Positions 12,467 through 44,583 of a stretch of DNA of 64,000 nt are shown one piece after another; position 1 is the first letter of the stretch, and each line of letters starts with the position of its first letter. The position numbers and the translations under genes were made by a program. The stretch spans positions 9,501 through 73,500 of the forward strand of contig CALXZC010000001.1 in the NCBI GenBank assembly GCA_944393135.1, given 5' to 3'. The notes beneath the pieces were generated by a model. It had not been told where the DNA came from. It ran no database searches and worked only from the letters and a program-made list of their open reading frames with translations. The stretch comes from an uncultured Clostridia bacterium. Lineage in GTDB: Bacteria > Bacillota > Clostridia > TANB77 > CAG-508.

Positions 12467-12943
12467 ATGAATAAATATATGCAAATGGCAAATGAATTAA
12501 GTAAACAAAATTTATTAACAAATGCTGGAGGACCCTTTGGTGCTGTTGTAATAAAAAATAATACAGTTGTAGGTGTAGGAAATAATCAAGTATTAAAAAA
12601 TAATGACCCAACAGCACACGCAGAAGTAATGGCTATTAGAAACGCTTGTAAGAATTTAAATACTTATGATTTAACAGGTTGTGAATTATATACAAGTTGT
12701 TATCCTTGTCCTATGTGTTTATCCACAATTATATGGGCTAATATTAAAACAGTATATTACGGTAATACAAAAGAAGATGCTGCCGATATAGGATTTAGAG
12801 ATGATATGATATATAAATTTATACAAAATATAGATGATGAAAATTGTACAAGTAGCATATTAAAAACTATTCCTATGGATAGAGAGGAAACTATACAAGT
12901 ATTTAATAAATTTAAAAATAAAGAAGATAAAACAATATACTAA
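12467..12943 (+). CDS. guaD: guanine deaminase-like (CDA-fold, GuaD type)
   Basis: GGPFGAVV...DPTAHAEVMAIR...SCYPCPMCLSTIIWA closely matches the Bacillus GuaD pattern as I recall it. Confidence 0.8.
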   Translation: MNKYMQMANELSKQNLLTNAGGPFGAVVIKNNTVVGVGNNQVLKNNDPTAHAEVMAIRNACKNLNTYDLTGCELYTSCYPCPMCLSTIIWANIKTVYYGNTKEDAADIGFRDDMIYKFIQNIDDENCTSSILKTIPMDREETIQVFNKFKNKEDKTIY

Positions 12944-12947
12944 GGTT

Positions 12948-13664
12948 GTGATACAAATGAGTTATAAAAATTTACAACATTATAGACATACAGTTCATAG
13001 ATATTTAGATGCTATATGGTTAGTAGGTTCTAGTAAAAAGAAAGCTAGGAGTACAATGTATAAATGGTTAAGTACTAAAATGAACTTAGATATAGAAGAC
13101 ACACACGTATCTAAATTTAATCGAGAACAATGTAAACAAGCTATAAAAATATTAAGACCTATGTATATACAGTTATATGGACAAGACCTTACATATAAAA
13201 AGAAAAGAAAGGAAGAAATAAATATGAATTTACAAACAACTTGTACACAAACTTTTGAAACAGCACATATATTACCGAAAGCTAATACTAAATATGATGG
13301 TTTATATAGTAGAACATATAAATTAAAAGTTACAGTAGAAGGACCTCAAATACAACCAATAGGAATGATAATTCCACAAGAGGAATTAAAAGAAATATTA
13401 AGTAAAGCGGTTCCTGACAGGCAATTTATTTTTAATATAAATAATCCTGTATGTAAAGAAATTGCTTATATATTACAAAGGTATGATATACCATATATAG
13501 AATTAGATAAAGAAGTAGTAGCAGAAAATTTAATACAATATTTAAAAGATAAAATAGAATATTATTTATATGAAGTATACCAATATTCTAAAGATATAAA
13601 AATAGTTGAAATGGAATTATCTTCAATTAAGGATGAATATTCTACAAAATTAATATTAAAATAG
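12948..13664 (+). CDS. hypothetical protein; C-terminal half PTPS/QueD-like but lacks the HGH motif
   Basis: FETAHILPKANTKYDGLYSRTYKLKVTVEGP resembles the QueD N-terminal strand pattern; start uncertain (GTG 12948 or ATG 12957). Confidence 0.45.
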   Translation: MIQMSYKNLQHYRHTVHRYLDAIWLVGSSKKKARSTMYKWLSTKMNLDIEDTHVSKFNREQCKQAIKILRPMYIQLYGQDLTYKKKRKEEINMNLQTTCTQTFETAHILPKANTKYDGLYSRTYKLKVTVEGPQIQPIGMIIPQEELKEILSKAVPDRQFIFNINNPVCKEIAYILQRYDIPYIELDKEVVAENLIQYLKDKIEYYLYEVYQYSKDIKIVEMELSSIKDEYSTKLILK

Positions 13665-17482: not shown

Positions 17483-17977
17483 ATGGAAGATAAATTAGGA
17501 AACACAATGAATCAGGATGCTACAAAGGATATGGAAAAAGTAATAAGGTCTATAGTAGAATCCAAAACAAAGGACATATCAATTATAATACATAAAATTC
17601 AAATGTTATTAAAAGATAATACACAAGAATTAACAGATGCCGAAATTGATGATATACTTTTACAACTTCCTATTGTTTTATATGATTCAATGGAAGAACA
17701 AGAAATTGTAGGTATGCAGAGTGATATGGCAAACCAAGTTTATAAACAAGCACAATCAGAGGCTTATAAAATGGCAAGAGGAACTATTAGTGATAAAAAT
17801 GCTGCTGCCGATATACAAACTCGTCAAGAACAATTAGAAAAAATATTGTTCGATAGAAGTTATAAAATTATTAAACAAAAATTTGAAATGGCATTAGAAA
17901 CTTTAAATGCTGTTAAAAAAGTACAGTCAAGTAGGCAGCAAAGATATGACTTAAGTAAATTTAGTAATAGATTTTAA
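17483..17977 (+). CDS. hypothetical protein
   Basis: 164-aa ORF with RBS TAGGAG. Confidence 0.5.
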   Translation: MEDKLGNTMNQDATKDMEKVIRSIVESKTKDISIIIHKIQMLLKDNTQELTDAEIDDILLQLPIVLYDSMEEQEIVGMQSDMANQVYKQAQSEAYKMARGTISDKNAAADIQTRQEQLEKILFDRSYKIIKQKFEMALETLNAVKKVQSSRQQRYDLSKFSNRF

Positions 17978-40488: not shown

Positions 40489-41184
40489 ATGGCAACAAAA
40501 ACAGAATCAAAACAATTAGTATTTGCTCCAAGGTGGAAACATTTAACAGTAACGATAAAAGGAGAAGCACCATTGGCAATGCAAAACAGACCACAGTCAG
40601 TAATTGAAAATTTAAGAAGAAAGGATAATGGATTACCTGTCATTAAATATAAAAATAGTGATTGGAGAAGATTTATAGATTCTATTCATTGGATAGATGA
40701 ATCTAAAAAACCAAATACATTAGATGATTCAATTACAGAAGAGCAATATCAAGAACAATTTAATAAACTTTTAAAAGAAAGTGAGGAAACAGGAGAACCA
40801 TTATTCTATATACCTACAGAAGCATTCAAAGAAAGTATTTGTAGTGGAGCATATAGAAACGGTATAACTAAGGATAAAGTTAGTATGAGAGGTTCTTTTA
40901 TAATAATTGGTGATAAAGCACCCATTAGATTTTCAAGTGTGGAAATGGAAGCGGTACCTACCATAAATAAAAATGCAAAAGGAGCTATGGTGGTAAGTGT
41001 ATATTCTAAATTTAACAATTGGGAAACCACATTAAAGATAAATTATAATGAAGAATTAATTTCCGCAGAAAATTTAATAAATATAATATGTGCATCTGGA
41101 TTAAGTGTGGGTGTACTTGCCAGAAGAACAGAATTAAGTTTTGGAAAATATGGTACATTTACAGCAACACAAGTTAAGAAATAA
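40489..41184 (+). CDS. hypothetical protein
   Basis: 231-aa ORF, RBS AAAGGAG. Confidence 0.55.
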   Translation: MATKTESKQLVFAPRWKHLTVTIKGEAPLAMQNRPQSVIENLRRKDNGLPVIKYKNSDWRRFIDSIHWIDESKKPNTLDDSITEEQYQEQFNKLLKESEETGEPLFYIPTEAFKESICSGAYRNGITKDKVSMRGSFIIIGDKAPIRFSSVEMEAVPTINKNAKGAMVVSVYSKFNNWETTLKINYNEELISAENLINIICASGLSVGVLARRTELSFGKYGTFTATQVKK

Positions 41185-41234
41185 ATCATTATAGGTGTTA
41201 TAATATATGTAGATATAAAAAGTTCCTTTTCTTT

Positions 41235-41309
41235 TGATAGGTAGCCTAGAGGGTTAGGCATAGGGCTCATAACCCTAATACGTGGGTTCGAATCCCACCT
41301 TATCAGCCA
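41235..41309 (+). tRNA. tRNA-Met(CAU), initiator-like, CCA encoded (cargo of cassette 1)
   Basis: Manual cloverleaf: TGATAGG TA GCCT AGAGGGTT AGGC A TAGGG CTCATAA CCCTA ATAC GTGGG TTCGAAT CCCAC CTTATCA G CCA. Three G:C pairs close the anticodon loop, as in tRNA-fMet. Confidence 0.85.
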
Positions 41310-41461
41310 TTTGTTACTTTTCATCTATATTCAAATTAGGGTATAAAAAGTTCCTTTTTGAGGGTAGTAACCCACAATTTTTTGGAAATTGAGTAATATT
41401 ACTTTTCACCCTATTTAATTTAATAATTAATTTTATACAACATAAAAAGTTCCTTATAACA

Positions 41462-41566
41462 ATTAGGGTCAAGCAGCCTGTCACTGGTTCGAGTCCAGTC
41501 TAGTGTAAATATTTATAAACGCGACTATATTTACGCTAGTAGCTCAGTTGGTAGAGCAGCCGCACA
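41462..41566 (+). tRNA. circularly permuted tRNA-like gene (cargo of cassette 3), anticodon not assignable
   Basis: T arm ACTGG TTCGAGT CCAGT, acceptor 3' strand CTAGTGT and A (41483-41507) lie upstream of acceptor 5' strand ACGCTAG and D arm TA GCTC AGTTGGTA GAGC (41533-41557); 7/7 acceptor pairs including one G-U. Confidence 0.5.
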
Positions 41567-41622
41567 TATTTTACTTTTCGTTGTATATATGTAATAATAG
41601 GCATAGAAACTTCCTTTAAAAA

Positions 41623-41665
41623 TGGTTAATCTTGGTTCGAATCCAAGAGTAGTGATTTAGCTACT
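41623..41665 (+). ncRNA. closed acceptor/T-arm minihelix (cargo of cassette 4)
   Basis: CTTGG TTCGAAT CCAAG T arm followed by hairpin AGTAGT-GATTTA-GCTACT; no D or anticodon arm. Confidence 0.35.
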
Positions 41666-41724
41666 TTAGTTAGTTTCAGCCTATATAATATTAAAAATGG
41701 TGGTATAAAAAGTTCCTTTATTTT

Positions 41725-41877
41725 GGTCTTGAAAACCGGTACATTGTAGGTTCGAATCCTACCTCCCCCACCAAACCCTTTAATTAGGGTTAATTCCAAC
41801 ATTATATTAATTTAGTGTGTTAAGTTTAAATATTTAACATACTAAATATGGGGGAGTGGCGGAATGGTAGACGCGCC
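41725..41877 (+). tRNA. circularly permuted (or split) tRNA gene, anticodon UGA (cargo of cassette 5)
   Basis: 3' part 41725-41773 is GGT CTTGAAA ACCGG TACATT GTAGG TTCGAAT CCTAC CTCCCCC A CCA. 5' part 41850-41877 is GGGGGAG TG GCG GAATGGTAGA CGC G CC. Acceptor pairs 7/7. Joining CC+GGT completes the anticodon stem CCGGT/ACCGG. Confidence 0.6.
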
Positions 41878-42013
41878 TTACATACTTTTCACCACATATT
41901 ATATACAATAGTGAGTTATAAGATGTTCCTTTTAATCCCTGATAAGGATTAGCCTTTTAAGCTAAATTATATTTACATCTCAACTCACTTTTATTTATTT
42001 AAAGGAGGATAAT

Positions 42014-42481
42014 ATGAAACAATTAAATTCTTATCAGCTTTGTTATGTAGAAGGTGGTAGATGGATGGATGAGGATATAACATTATATTTCACAGAGAGG
42101 GACGTTAAAGACCAGTGGGGTGATGGTTGGTCAAGACATCCATACGAACACAATGCTGGAACACCTTATGATGAGGATACTAGTGTTGAATTAGGTGTTG
42201 AAAATGGTAGAGGAGTATATCCAAAAATAGATATATTTAAAGTAATATTAACAACGAATGAATATAGTTATTTAATTACACCTTGTTCTAATACAGATAA
42301 TTCTATCTATTCTGTAAAGGATATAAATAGTAAATCCATACCTTGGGTAACTATTAAAAAAGATGATACTGTTGTATCTTTGTATGCTGGAACTACATAT
42401 AAAAAATTTTTAAGTTTAGTTAAAGATTTAGATTTTATTGAAATAATGGTTCCATATCATAGGTTTATTAAAAAGAAATAA
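42014..42481 (+). CDS. hypothetical protein
   Basis: 155-aa ORF, RBS AAAGGAGG. Confidence 0.55.
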   Translation: MKQLNSYQLCYVEGGRWMDEDITLYFTERDVKDQWGDGWSRHPYEHNAGTPYDEDTSVELGVENGRGVYPKIDIFKVILTTNEYSYLITPCSNTDNSIYSVKDINSKSIPWVTIKKDDTVVSLYAGTTYKKFLSLVKDLDFIEIMVPYHRFIKKK

Positions 42482-42504: not shown

Positions 42505-44583
42505 GTGATGAGAGATATGTTAGAAAAACAAATTATATCTTGTTTAAGATTATTTAAAGGTTATTTGCCTAATTGTACAAATGAATTAGACGTATGTAAA
42601 ACAGTGTTGGAATTTAAAGAAGATATGTTAAAAAGAGGCTTATTATTTGTAACAAAAACAACAGAGGATATATCGCCAAAAGTTGTAGAGTTGGCTGTAA
42701 ATATGTATGGAGTTAAAGAAGAGGAATGGAATCAAACATTTCATAAATCATTTGCAACAGTAAGAGATACCGATATAGAAACATTAGTAGTGCAACAAAT
42801 AGTACATTATATAACAACCTATGGATTTGAAGCATTAGGTATATATGATAAAGACACAGTATATATTCCAAAAGAGGAACTAGAAATACCGGAATTAGAC
42901 AGGGATATACCTTTAGTTGTTATTAAAGAATTAACAGAGGAAGAATTAGGTGAAAAATTATTAACATTATTAACATCAGGAATAGCCTTAAGTGAACAAA
43001 CAGTACAAGACGTTATGAATTTAAGTGATTATATACCTAAAACTAAATTTGATGATATTAAAAATAAAGAATTAAGAACAGCATTGTATGATAAATATAA
43101 TATTGTTCCAAGAAATAATGTAGAATTTTTAAGATATATGATTTATAAATTAACTAGTTCAACATTATTAATAAAGAATCAACAAACAATAAAAACTTTA
43201 AAAGAAGCTAATACAGAACAAGTGTATAATTTATTACATAGTTATCTAACTAATACATCAAATGGATATATAAAATTAGCGGAAATCTTCTTAAGATATA
43301 AGGATTTATTTTTAGCTTTAAAAAGGTCCGATGATAGTGTAGATATATTTAGTAAAACATCTTTTAAAGAAAATAAACAAATTAATAAAATTATTAATAA
43401 AATTAGTAAATTAGCTAAAAAATATCATAAACCTTTACAACCACAAATATTAGACCAATTAACACAATTATCTAGTACAAAAGTAATGGAAAAAGAATCT
43501 GAAATATTAGAAGAATTAAATAAGGTAACAATATTTAGAGAGTTAAGAATATTAAATGGTTTATTATATAGATTACAAAATCCTGAAAATATGTTATATA
43601 AGATAAGAAATGGAAAAGGTTATGTAAAATCATCTAAAAATTATAAGGTTGTTGATAGTAATTATAGTAAATATCAATATATTTACAATTTAGTATATAA
43701 ACATTTAGTACAAAGATTAACACTAATATTAAAAGATAAAACAGCTTATATTCCAGAAAATATAAATTATGCCTTACCAACATCTGAAAAACAATTTAAT
43801 GAAAATATACCTGAAGGCACATATATAGAGATACCTAGAACAACAAATATGGTTATAGGTGTACATTGGAAAAATACAAGTGGTAGAGTTGATTTAGATT
43901 TACACGCACAAAATAAAGACCAACAATTTGGATGGAATACAAGCTATAGAAGTGTAAGTGGTTCTGAATTTTATTATAGTGGTGATATTACAAGTCCAGA
44001 TGTGGAATATGGAGCAACAGAAGTATTTTATATAGGTCAAAGTTTAGAACAAAAAGCTTTTTTACTAACATTAAATGATTATTCAAGTCCTAATGAAGAT
44101 ATACCTTATGAGTTTTTTGTAGCAGAAACAGATAGAGAACAAGTGGATAAAAGTTATATAGTAAACCCAAATAAAGTTAAATTTATAACTACAGAAAAAT
44201 TTAAATATATACATTCTACAAAACAATTTGAATCTAGACAAAAAGTATTAGCATTTATAGTTATTAATAAAGATAGTATAAAAGTATATTTTAATGATTT
44301 TTCTTTAGGAAATTCTATTGTTACAAGACAAAATAATATTACACAAGGTGCTTTTAAATGTTTACAAATAGAGGCAGATAATAGATTAATGTTAAAAGAT
44401 ATTTTAGTAGATTGTGGTGTTAAATTAGTAGATAGTCCAACATATGATGAATTTATTAAAGATGAAACAATGTTAGACAAGGATGGACAACCTGTATACA
44501 AAAAGATAACACATAAAGTCGATTACGATTTATCATTAGAAAATATAGATAAAACAACTTTTATAAATTTATTAAATAGTTAA
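42505..44583 (+). CDS. large hypothetical protein; C-terminal TerD-like segment possible
   Basis: 692-aa ORF; VHWKNTSGRVDLDLHAQ...YYSGDITS...GATEVFYI resembles the TerD-domain pattern. Confidence 0.5.
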   Translation: MMRDMLEKQIISCLRLFKGYLPNCTNELDVCKTVLEFKEDMLKRGLLFVTKTTEDISPKVVELAVNMYGVKEEEWNQTFHKSFATVRDTDIETLVVQQIVHYITTYGFEALGIYDKDTVYIPKEELEIPELDRDIPLVVIKELTEEELGEKLLTLLTSGIALSEQTVQDVMNLSDYIPKTKFDDIKNKELRTALYDKYNIVPRNNVEFLRYMIYKLTSSTLLIKNQQTIKTLKEANTEQVYNLLHSYLTNTSNGYIKLAEIFLRYKDLFLALKRSDDSVDIFSKTSFKENKQINKIINKISKLAKKYHKPLQPQILDQLTQLSSTKVMEKESEILEELNKVTIFRELRILNGLLYRLQNPENMLYKIRNGKGYVKSSKNYKVVDSNYSKYQYIYNLVYKHLVQRLTLILKDKTAYIPENINYALPTSEKQFNENIPEGTYIEIPRTTNMVIGVHWKNTSGRVDLDLHAQNKDQQFGWNTSYRSVSGSEFYYSGDITSPDVEYGATEVFYIGQSLEQKAFLLTLNDYSSPNEDIPYEFFVAETDREQVDKSYIVNPNKVKFITTEKFKYIHSTKQFESRQKVLAFIVINKDSIKVYFNDFSLGNSIVTRQNNITQGAFKCLQIEADNRLMLKDILVDCGVKLVDSPTYDEFIKDETMLDKDGQPVYKKITHKVDYDLSLENIDKTTFINLLNS

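Follow-up and report, generated by a model that had tools for sequence, protein, structure and literature searches.

A tandem array of clamped RNA cassettes with exchangeable, often tRNA-like inserts, linked to a large protein gene in phages and bacteria

We analysed a 64-kb stretch of contig CALXZC010000001.1 (hereafter the window), a phage segment with a GC content of ~26% and with every gene on the + strand, together with contigs and genomes retrieved for comparison (loci L121-L227). The subject is an array of six tandem units at positions 41209-41989 (+), flanked by an open reading frame (ORF) of 231 aa (40489-41184) and one of 155 aa (42014-42481). The two ends of every unit pair with each other as a clamp around an insert, and a gene for a protein of 692 aa, referred to here as the partner protein, lies downstream at 42505-44583 (+). 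It is probable that the array belongs to a module of handle RNAs and a protein, analogous to Ro60 and its Y RNAs, which has been expanded in phages into a display of tRNA shapes.

Each unit has the order H2 - ATA - H1 (6 nt) - TCCTTWW - insert - H1' - C - H2', the single 3' base being A in unit 4. The first-pass annotation of this DNA had described six such units, and all of them were found again in the sequence at the same positions with the same H1/H1' and H2/H2'; the A in unit 4 was also as described, and H2 proved to be one pair longer in units 1 and 5. It had further regarded ATA and C as invariant. This is correct for ATA in the six window units, whereas the 125 cassettes of relatives vary in the A-N-A bulge (ATA in 88, AAA in 20 and ACA in 11) and have C as the 3' single base in 109. 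Within the window, the exact 15-mer core was found only in the array. When the units were folded for minimum free energy (MFE) without constraints, the clamp was recovered in five of the six, and unit 5 including its outer helix gave a folding z of -4.8.

A blastn search of 50,697 phage records with the array gave no match, and a locus search of IMG/VR, in which each of the two flanking proteins served as a single query sequence, gave nothing. An exact scan of IMG/VR with a 14-mer of the core returned at least 120 single matches, which were set aside as chance: they lay in GC-rich coding DNA and had no tRNAs and no closing stems. The upstream 231-aa protein has a graded series of homologs, and the contigs of these homologs hold arrays of the same design with other stems. 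Near-identical copies of the window region occur on ~202-kb contigs from animal-gut metagenomes. The loci L128-L131 have three units each, with GAAAGT/ACTTTC as H1/H1'; L133 and L134 have four units and a fifth read by eye, in which H1 is TAAAGT, AAATGT, AAGACT, GAAAGT or AGATGT, each with its own complement. Altogether, we collected ~160 distinct cassettes with ~40 different H1 and ~65 different H2, from related and very distant phages and from bacterial chromosomes.

To each cassette belongs its own partner strand. In the own-partner test, candidates (n = 137, from 36 distinct upstream regions) were picked by the unpaired 5' motif alone, and the partner was sought within 330 nt. The expected H1'-N-H2' was found for 112 of the 137; with stems borrowed from another cassette, the count was 6-10 (maximum 18). 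Furthermore, of the 13 pairs in 107 distinct clamps, 12 varied on both sides; compensatory cells numbered 434, compared with 130 +/- 10 after shuffling. The covariation score of these clamps was 0.81 compared with 0.24 for shuffled ones; it was reached in none of 500 shuffles and collapsed when the partners were slid by 1-3 columns. Because the 10 inner pairs are imposed by the cassette filter, the own-partner test is the independent one; the three outer H2 pairs, which the filter does not impose, are paired in 53-89% of cases. Single non-Watson-Crick positions were G.U in 30 cases and A.C in 5, a count on single mismatches that stands in for the outer-H2 version of the test, whose counts were too few. 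Since G.U is thus tolerated 6:1 over A.C, the structure is selected in the RNA of the + strand. These findings put the clamp far beyond chance and confirm what the first-pass annotation had argued, that the RNA secondary structure is under selection and that the changes in its stems are genuinely compensatory; the place where it had expected the idea to fail if wrong, namely flanks of relatives that do not covary, was examined, and these flanks covary massively.

The unpaired bases are conserved as well. UCCU after H1 and U before H1' recur throughout, and T30 and C37, neither of which is imposed by the filter, are conserved in at least 90%. The alignment was also inspected for known motifs. 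A kink-turn was rejected because the 3-nt bulge is not followed by tandem G.A pairs, a bulge-helix-bulge because the bulge sizes and the spacing are wrong, and a T-loop mimic for GUUCCU because positions 57 and 58 are wrong.

The inserts, in turn, are unequal. About half of all cassettes have a loop of 14-50 nt and nothing more, the inserts of distant lineages are only A/U-rich loops of 14-30 nt, and a tRNA motif is absent from 61 of the 118 non-redundant cassettes. The classes of insert comprise permuted tRNA mimics of the YrlA type whose acceptor end is closed by a small loop (A; window unit 3); permuted class-II tRNA-Ser in which an internal N-CCA, kept in six lineages, is followed by a spacer of 5-84 nt (B; window unit 5, with the internal N-CCA also in L133, L143, L144, L152 and L178); whole tRNAs (C; window unit 1, and also L143 and L156); 'UGGUUA' with a T-arm and a closed acceptor minihelix (D; window unit 4); 'UGGUUU' with a T-arm only (E); and short hairpins or plain loops (F; window units 2 and 6). 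Because about half of the cassettes carry only a short loop, the clamp and its core, which we call the handle, appear to be the functional unit rather than a stem for tRNA processing. The modularity of the inserts likewise speaks against such a stem and fits a constant handle with exchangeable effector modules. The proposal of the first-pass annotation that the stem exists to process or assemble its tRNA cargo is therefore probably wrong.

The six units of the window, all on the + strand, illustrate this range. Unit 1 (41209-41328) has H2 GTAGAT/ATCTAT, ATA, H1 AAAAGT/ACTTTT, the core TCCTTTT and the 3' bulge C at 41322. It encloses a complete tRNA-Met(CAT) with an encoded CCA at 41235-41309 (66.9 bits), the one canonical tRNA that ARAGORN and Rfam report, and its clamp was recovered by MFE folding. 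Unit 2 (41337-41413; TAGGGT/ACCCTA; AAAAGT/ACTTTT; C) has a 49-nt insert of short hairpins that lacks a tRNA motif. For this unit MFE favours an alternative fold; the clamp is nevertheless kept in the near-identical contigs L121-L126. Unit 3 (41434-41587; TATACAAC/GTTGTATA; AAAAGT/ACTTTT; C) carries the YrlA-type permuted tRNA mimic, consisting of a T-arm (41484-41500), an acceptor-like stem closed as a long hairpin with no CCA (41501-41540) and a D-arm (41543-41558); the clamp, the T-arm, the closed acceptor and the D-arm were all present in the MFE structure. Unit 4 (41597-41684; ATAGGC/GCCTAT; GAAACT/AGTTTC; 3' bulge A) carries 'AUGGUUAAU', a T-arm at 41631-41647 and, at 41648-41665, an acceptor-like minihelix that ends in a closing loop, and the same type of cargo was seen again in L141, L143, L156 and L175.

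Unit 5 (41699-41896; GGTGGT/ACCACA; AAAAGT/ACTTTT; C) has in addition an outer helix (41682-41691 with 41896-41905). Its cargo is a circularly permuted tRNA-Ser(UGA): the 3' part, with the anticodon arm, the T-arm, the 3' strand of the acceptor, A and CCA, lies at 41723-41773, and after a 76-nt spacer with two hairpins the 5' part, comprising the acceptor's 5' strand and the D-arm, follows at 41850-41875. After un-permuting, ARAGORN reported unit 5 as tRNA-Ser(tga), and L143 2622-2751 and the L133 unit likewise as tRNA-Ser (tga or cga). In the window, the handle enters the permuted tRNA-Ser at position 26/27, where the D-arm meets the anticodon arm; in L133 and L143 its entry point is the position of the variable arm. 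Unit 6 (41910-41989; AGTGAGTT/AACTCACT; AGATGT/ACATCT; C) has two small hairpins with 7-nt loops, CUGAUAA and CUUUUAA, and its H1/H2 type is that of the last cassette in L141 and L182.

An extended -10 box, TGTTATAAT, was read in the sequence at 41196-41204 (+), in agreement with the first-pass annotation, and would put the start of transcription at about the first base of unit 1. The consensus promoter scanner did not report this box, as it has no -35 box. Similar boxes lie directly upstream of the arrays of relatives, namely GATGTTATATAAT in L128, L133 and L141 and TTGACA-17-TGATATAAT in L158, and TGnTAnnnT was found within 45 nt of 21 of the 63 array-leading cassettes, compared with 9% of random windows.

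Arrays and the partner gene are linked genomically in both directions. When loci were retrieved from IMG/VR by the protein, cassettes lay at most 1.2 kb upstream of the partner gene in 28 of 30 distinct loci; their density was 2.39 per kb in that upstream stretch and 0.027 per kb elsewhere on both strands, and in 18 loci the last cassette ended 17-36 nt before the start codon of the partner gene. When IMG/VR was searched for the RNA by a degenerate clamp pattern, 18 of 28 matches closed into a clamp. The partner gene lay just downstream on the same strand for 17 of these 18, the 18th locus being cut off, and for none of the 10 matches that did not close. Elsewhere in the window, three sites inside ORFs and far from the array passed a relaxed clamp filter (12856-13076 (+), 9457-9612 (-) and 17771-17893 (-)), which agrees with the rate at which the filter passes sites by chance (0.027 per kb).

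The pairing of cassettes and protein persists down to ~30% protein identity. In every clade, the partner gene follows the array on its downstream side. Partner copies of 41-53% identity lie directly downstream of the arrays in L128 and L133, and in L133 the array and the partner gene have been relocated together, away from the 231-aa gene. In cyanophage S-CRM01 (L179), five cassettes lie upstream of g174 within a tRNA cluster, one of them a textbook YrlA-type module (2481-2602), and one lies downstream (4693-4746); the 48-aa antisense ORF annotated there as g173c (2656-2802) overlies these upstream cassettes and has probably been called as a gene in error. The pairing was also found in cyanophage S-CBWM1, whose 'pseudo-tRNAs' downstream of gp22 are not clamp cassettes, in gut phage Phass-1, in contigs of GC-rich metagenome-assembled genomes, and in the bacterial chromosomes of Leptolyngbya PCC 7376, Chryseobacterium and Epilithonimonas. 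In Leptolyngbya, three cassettes by scan and a fourth by eye precede the partner gene, with transposases and an integrase nearby. In L165 and L166, a 24-nt tandem repeat (GTGTGGGATTCCrTGG...) was seen at ~5991-6136, ~1 kb downstream of the partner-gene homolog.

The partner family has more than 1,400 homologs of ~600-700 aa. The window protein had no match in Pfam, NCBIfam, PADLOC or PHROG, and 25 members of the family had none in Pfam at E <= 1. In the AlphaFold model (AF2; predicted local distance difference test score, 79), the N-terminal half is helical and the C-terminal half is a beta-sandwich. Foldseek gave no significant match of this model to the PDB, including no Ro60 structure, and a search of the PDB by sequence profile was also negative. 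The sole fold matches were phage proteins in BFVD. One of these is named 'tellurium resistant like', a name that is the only backing for a TerD-like motif in the C-terminal half, and such a motif was not established. The 155-aa ORF between the array and the partner gene (42014-42481, +) is specific to its clade, has no family match and is probably outside the module.

The bacterial loci, of which three were examined, place the cassettes in the context of RNA repair. In Chryseobacterium joostei, the order is a divergent WYL regulator, HopJ, RtcB, a 100-nt tRNA-like RNA, two cassettes and the partner gene. In the Chryseobacterium locus L226, RtcB is at 4308-5690, the tRNA-like RNA at 5735-5834, the cassettes at 5872-5986 and the protein at 6001-7752; genes for RlaP and R2K lie near the Chryseobacterium locus. 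The arrangement in Epilithonimonas is the same, with no RtcB in the stretch retrieved. A tRNA-like RNA and a dedicated protein adjoining an RNA ligase were accordingly found in L226 and not in the window. The slot beside RtcB in Chryseobacterium corresponds to that of Ro60/Rsr with YrlA/YrlB in rsr-yrlBA-rtcBA and, elsewhere, to that of Band-7 with b7a-tRNA (10.1101/312249). The tRNA-like genes of L226 (5735-5834) and L227 (5725-5822) are in normal order and match the Rfam tRNA model at 49-53 bits over ~100 nt. By eye, a handle in closed form (ACUUUU-C-GC-loop-GGC-AAA-AAAAGU-UCCU) tentatively replaces the anticodon arm in both, a fold not recovered by MFE. YrlA with Rsr and b7a-tRNA with Band-7 have been modelled as acting with RtcB, as its cofactors (10.1101/312249), and a tRNA-like domain has been proposed to be a competitive inhibitor of an anticodon nuclease (PMC7790460).

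Some distant relatives lack the module and have 15-22 ordinary tRNA genes (L135, L137 and L139). Just downstream of their 231-aa homolog, i.e. in the slot of the array, they encode a phage transfer-messenger RNA (tmRNA; L135 11469-11825, L137 10743-11097 and L139 10768-11119) with the tags AEKELIAA, ANEELVAA and ANAELIAA. Furthermore, L137 (6184-6999 and 20412-20708) and L139 (1-36, 6003-6818 and 15362-19417) encode Band_7 among the tRNAs, an Rnl1-type ligase, PNK/phosphoesterase and Thg1; this set may be the known Band-7/b7a-tRNA repair module, as an alternative to the handle module. Direct repeats at a spacing of 66 nt (TTTTA..TATATAAAATTACAyAGTAsTAAAAG), in 2 and 3 copies, were also seen among the tRNA genes of L137 at 2289-2402 and 7446-7625. 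In the window itself, a clamp-loader (DNA_pol3_delta2) ORF at 21410-23401 has an intein-like insertion of a LAGLIDADG/Hom_end homing-endonuclease domain, and GIY-YIG/NUMOD3 endonucleases are also encoded. The Pfam summary of 70 window ORFs includes QueC, QueD-like (PTPS), QueE-like radical SAM, GTP cyclohydrolase I and a queuine tRNA-ribosyltransferase-like protein, i.e. the 7-deazaguanine pathway, as well as a HAD_SAK_2 'Swiss Army Knife RNA repair' domain and a YqeY protein.

On this basis, we propose that the array would be transcribed from its own promoter on the + strand into six small non-coding RNAs, co-oriented with the downstream gene for the ~690-aa protein. In each RNA, the 5' and 3' ends are predicted to pair as H2 and H1 around an asymmetric internal loop (A-N-A opposite a single C), with UCCU after H1 and U before H1', and the insert would be freely exchangeable: a short loop, a T-arm 'elbow', a YrlA-type mimic, a complete tRNA, or a permuted tRNA-Ser that has its CCA inside. 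The handle is presumed to be the site at which the co-encoded protein binds, or at which the RNA is processed, and the insert would be the effector that shows tRNA shapes to tRNA-binding enzymes, either as a cofactor of RNA repair or to decoy defence nucleases that cleave tRNAs. In function, the module would thus parallel two pairs known from RtcB RNA-repair operons, Ro60/Rsr with YrlA and Band-7 with b7a-tRNA. The first-pass annotation had recognised the selected structure, and it overlooked the ~690-aa gene downstream and the YrlA layout of the permuted cargos.

Several points weigh against this proposal. No RtcB or Rnl ligase was found in the 70-ORF scan of the 64-kb window, and the link to repair comes from one bacterial neighbourhood and from relatives. 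The partner protein has no RNA-binding or catalytic domain recognisable by Pfam and no match to a solved structure by PDB profile or Foldseek; it may be a binder, a nuclease, a ligase, or a protein unrelated to RNA. In addition, the two most divergent homologs (28% identity; L197 and L198) have no detectable cassette, and the tight placement of arrays upstream of the gene also fits a leader that acts in cis. The family may, moreover, already appear in the main comparative survey of RNA-repair systems, which our literature search did not cover.

The alternatives can be weighed against the same observations. The clamp could be a cleavage or holding signal, for an RNase III-like enzyme, RNase P/Z or a phage nuclease, by which the enclosed tRNAs mature, including permuted precursors through a circular or two-piece intermediate. 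Real tRNAs are indeed enclosed in unit 1 and in cassettes of L143 and L156; the internal N-CCA kept in six lineages suggests that the RNA is opened at the acceptor end; the stems hold the 5' and 3' ends together as in permuted pre-tRNAs; and a YrlA with a 7-bp acceptor stem is a substrate of RNase P and then receives CCA (10.1101/312249). Nevertheless, half of the cassettes hold nothing tRNA-like to mature, most tRNA-like inserts have acceptor ends closed by loops of 3-5 nt and no CCA, the helices are short and interrupted with no bulge-helix-bulge motif, and ordinary tRNAs nearby in S-CRM01 and relatives have no clamp. That unpaired bases are conserved and that a protein is dedicated to the cassettes points instead to recognition of the handle itself, and we regard maturation of tRNAs as an unlikely purpose. 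That the hairpins are repeated operators in the 5' untranslated region of the protein mRNA, autoregulating its translation or stability and not forming independent RNAs, is quite unlikely. It would account for the position of the last cassette close to the start codon in most loci and for the finding of no terminator between the array and the downstream genes of the window. The UCCUUU cores are also complementary to the downstream ribosome-binding site AAAGGAGG of the 155-aa ORF, and 41602-41620 (unit 4) and 41918-41936 (unit 6) form 19-nt imperfect inverted repeats with 41997-42016. However, the core is equally conserved in cyanophages and in GC-rich lineages, so that an anti-Shine-Dalgarno mimic pairing with this site is less likely. 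Up to seven units with elaborate tRNA-like or YrlA-like inserts are also hard to reconcile with an operator, as are the extra promoters within arrays (L133), the cassettes downstream of or apart from the gene (those in S-CRM01 and L194, in Phass-1 and in S-CBWM1, L180 277-333), and the 155-aa ORF that separates array and gene in the window.

A pair resembling a type III toxin-antitoxin system, in which units processed from the array would hold a harmful or highly active protein in check, fits the layout of tandem structured RNA units directly upstream of one co-transcribed protein gene, and also the occurrence in phages and in mobile islands such as that of Leptolyngbya, with its transposases and integrase. 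We consider it very unlikely, since the units have diverged, with different stems and inserts, and are not identical direct repeats, the protein of 600-700 aa has no ToxN/AbiQ-like or PADLOC match, and neither the tRNA-like inserts nor the RtcB context is a type III feature. The cassettes might also be ordinary Y RNAs that bind a Ro60/Rsr encoded elsewhere in the phage or the host. Unit 3 matched the Rfam YrlA family RF02553 at 33.7 bits (E = 3.5e-5), and six loci (the window, L128, L133, L143, L156 and L179) gave matches at 29-47 bits. The exact order of V, T-arm, closed acceptor-like stem and D-arm inside an end-formed stem was found in unit 3, L128, L133, L143, L156 and S-CRM01 L179 2481-2602, and YrlA genes are known in 22 phages (PMC4201824). 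However, all of these matches fall below the gathering score of 69, and the Rsr-binding motif GNCGAAN0-1G was found in none of 162 cassettes within the 5' 40 nt and in one of 162 anywhere. A gene for a Ro60/TROVE-domain protein would be expected within ~4 kb of a YrlA; TROVE had no match among the window ORFs of at least 340 aa or in the 70-ORF scan, and what is conserved next to the cassettes is another protein, with a model that does not match Ro60 structures. The cassettes are Y-RNA-like in design and context and are not members of the YrlA family in the strict sense; that they are ordinary Y RNAs is highly improbable. Repeats acting as DNA, i.e. miniature mobile elements or attC-like recombination sites, would explain why the units stand in tandem, end in inverted repeats and conserve unpaired bases, as well as the different genome positions of the array in L133 and the window. 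Yet the cassettes lie strictly on one strand, co-oriented with the gene, the preference for G.U over A.C is that expected of RNA, promoters lie directly upstream, and there are no target duplications and no linkage to a recombinase; this explanation has an almost negligible probability.

Returning to handle RNAs with a dedicated protein, a bolder form of this proposal can be stated, which we put forward only as a tentative possibility. The module might be a third, hitherto unrecognised class of RNA-repair-type ribonucleoprotein beside Ro60/Y RNA and Band-7/b7a-tRNA, with a new handle and a new protein family, occurring in T4-like cyanophages, ~200-kb gut phages and bacterial RtcB operons and expanded by phages into arrays of tRNA parts. 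Opening of the permuted tRNA-Ser at the acceptor end might yield two-piece tRNAs that end in CCA and could be charged; no earlier permuted tRNA genes would then be known from a bacterial virus, and the arrays might serve to repair, replace or decoy tRNAs hit by host anticodon nucleases. If the handle RNAs do bind the adjacent protein, they would constitute a new and widespread RNA-protein module, and the design of Y RNAs, a protein handle plus a tRNA mimic, would have arisen more than once. The natural series from an empty handle through an elbow and a permuted tRNA to a whole tRNA could be used to dissect the role of the tRNA-like part, a question still open for Ro60/YrlA. The arrays also provide candidate permuted tRNA genes in phages, and they are likely a newly found participant in the arms race that phages and bacterial defence nucleases wage over tRNAs. 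Direct testing is possible in cultured carriers, i.e. Synechococcus phage S-CRM01 (g174), S-CBWM1, Chryseobacterium and Leptolyngbya PCC 7376.

The first-pass annotation knew of no described equivalent around phage tRNA genes. Rfam 15 has no entry for the cassettes, the partner family is absent from Pfam, NCBIfam, PADLOC and the function-annotated PHROGs, and the elements are not mentioned in the cyanophage papers searched. The annotation had compared the flanks with rRNA processing stems and with the complementary tails of Nanoarchaeum split tRNAs, and both likenesses turned out to be superficial. Long-range pairing of flanks around a structured RNA is shared with the stems at which RNase III cuts during the processing of rRNA and tRNA. 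However, the handle, with its 6 bp and 5-8 bp interrupted by an internal loop, is shorter than the typical near-perfect duplex of ~20 bp, has conserved unpaired bases, encloses near-empty loops and is tied to a specific protein gene. As for split tRNAs, there is no bulge-helix-bulge, and both permuted halves lie in one transcript. Type III toxin-antitoxin systems (ToxI/ToxN) and CRISPR arrays likewise have a tandem series of structured RNA units immediately upstream of a gene in the same orientation, for a protein that could bind or process them, whereas the units here are not direct repeats and share only a core of 15-20 nt, the inserts are derived from tRNA, and the protein, a large one, is unrelated.

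Circularly permuted tRNA genes occur in Cyanidioschyzon merolae, some algae and Thermofilum, where a bulge-helix-bulge junction is cut by the splicing endonuclease and a circular intermediate is formed. In unit 5-type cassettes, the 3' half similarly precedes the 5' half on one strand, and the rejoined halves give a canonical tRNA-Ser. The junction differs, being the handle (H2, a loop of 3 nt against 1 nt, and a 6-bp H1) and not two 3-nt bulges 4 bp apart, and to our knowledge the splicing endonuclease is not present in bacteria. Two-piece permuted tmRNA also has an internal CCA followed by a spacer, as unit 5 does; the match of unit 5 to tmRNA_permuted was 21.1 bits against a gathering score of 47 and covered only the part with T-arm, acceptor and CCA, with no tag reading frame, and ARAGORN found no tmRNA in the window.

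The closest parallels are the RNAs of RtcB operons. Band-7/b7a-tRNA is a second known case in which a tRNA-like non-coding RNA and a dedicated non-enzymatic protein are paired beside RtcB (Burroughs & Aravind 2016, as cited in 10.1101/312249), and the bacterial handle loci L226 and L227 likewise begin with a normal-order tRNA-like RNA, which in L226 lies by RtcB. The protein family is a different one, and a handle motif is not described for b7a-tRNA. With YrlA/Ro60, in the rsr-yrlBA-rtcBA operon, the module shares a circularly permuted tRNA mimic as the effector, copies beside a partner protein, an occurrence in both bacteria and phages, and the link to RtcB. It differs from YrlA in its handle, with the A-N-A/C loop and UCCU, and in the neighbouring protein, which is not a TROVE/vWA protein. 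Furthermore, its cassettes form arrays of up to seven units, half of them have no tRNA-like module, and some carry instead a whole tRNA or a CCA-bearing permuted tRNA-Ser.

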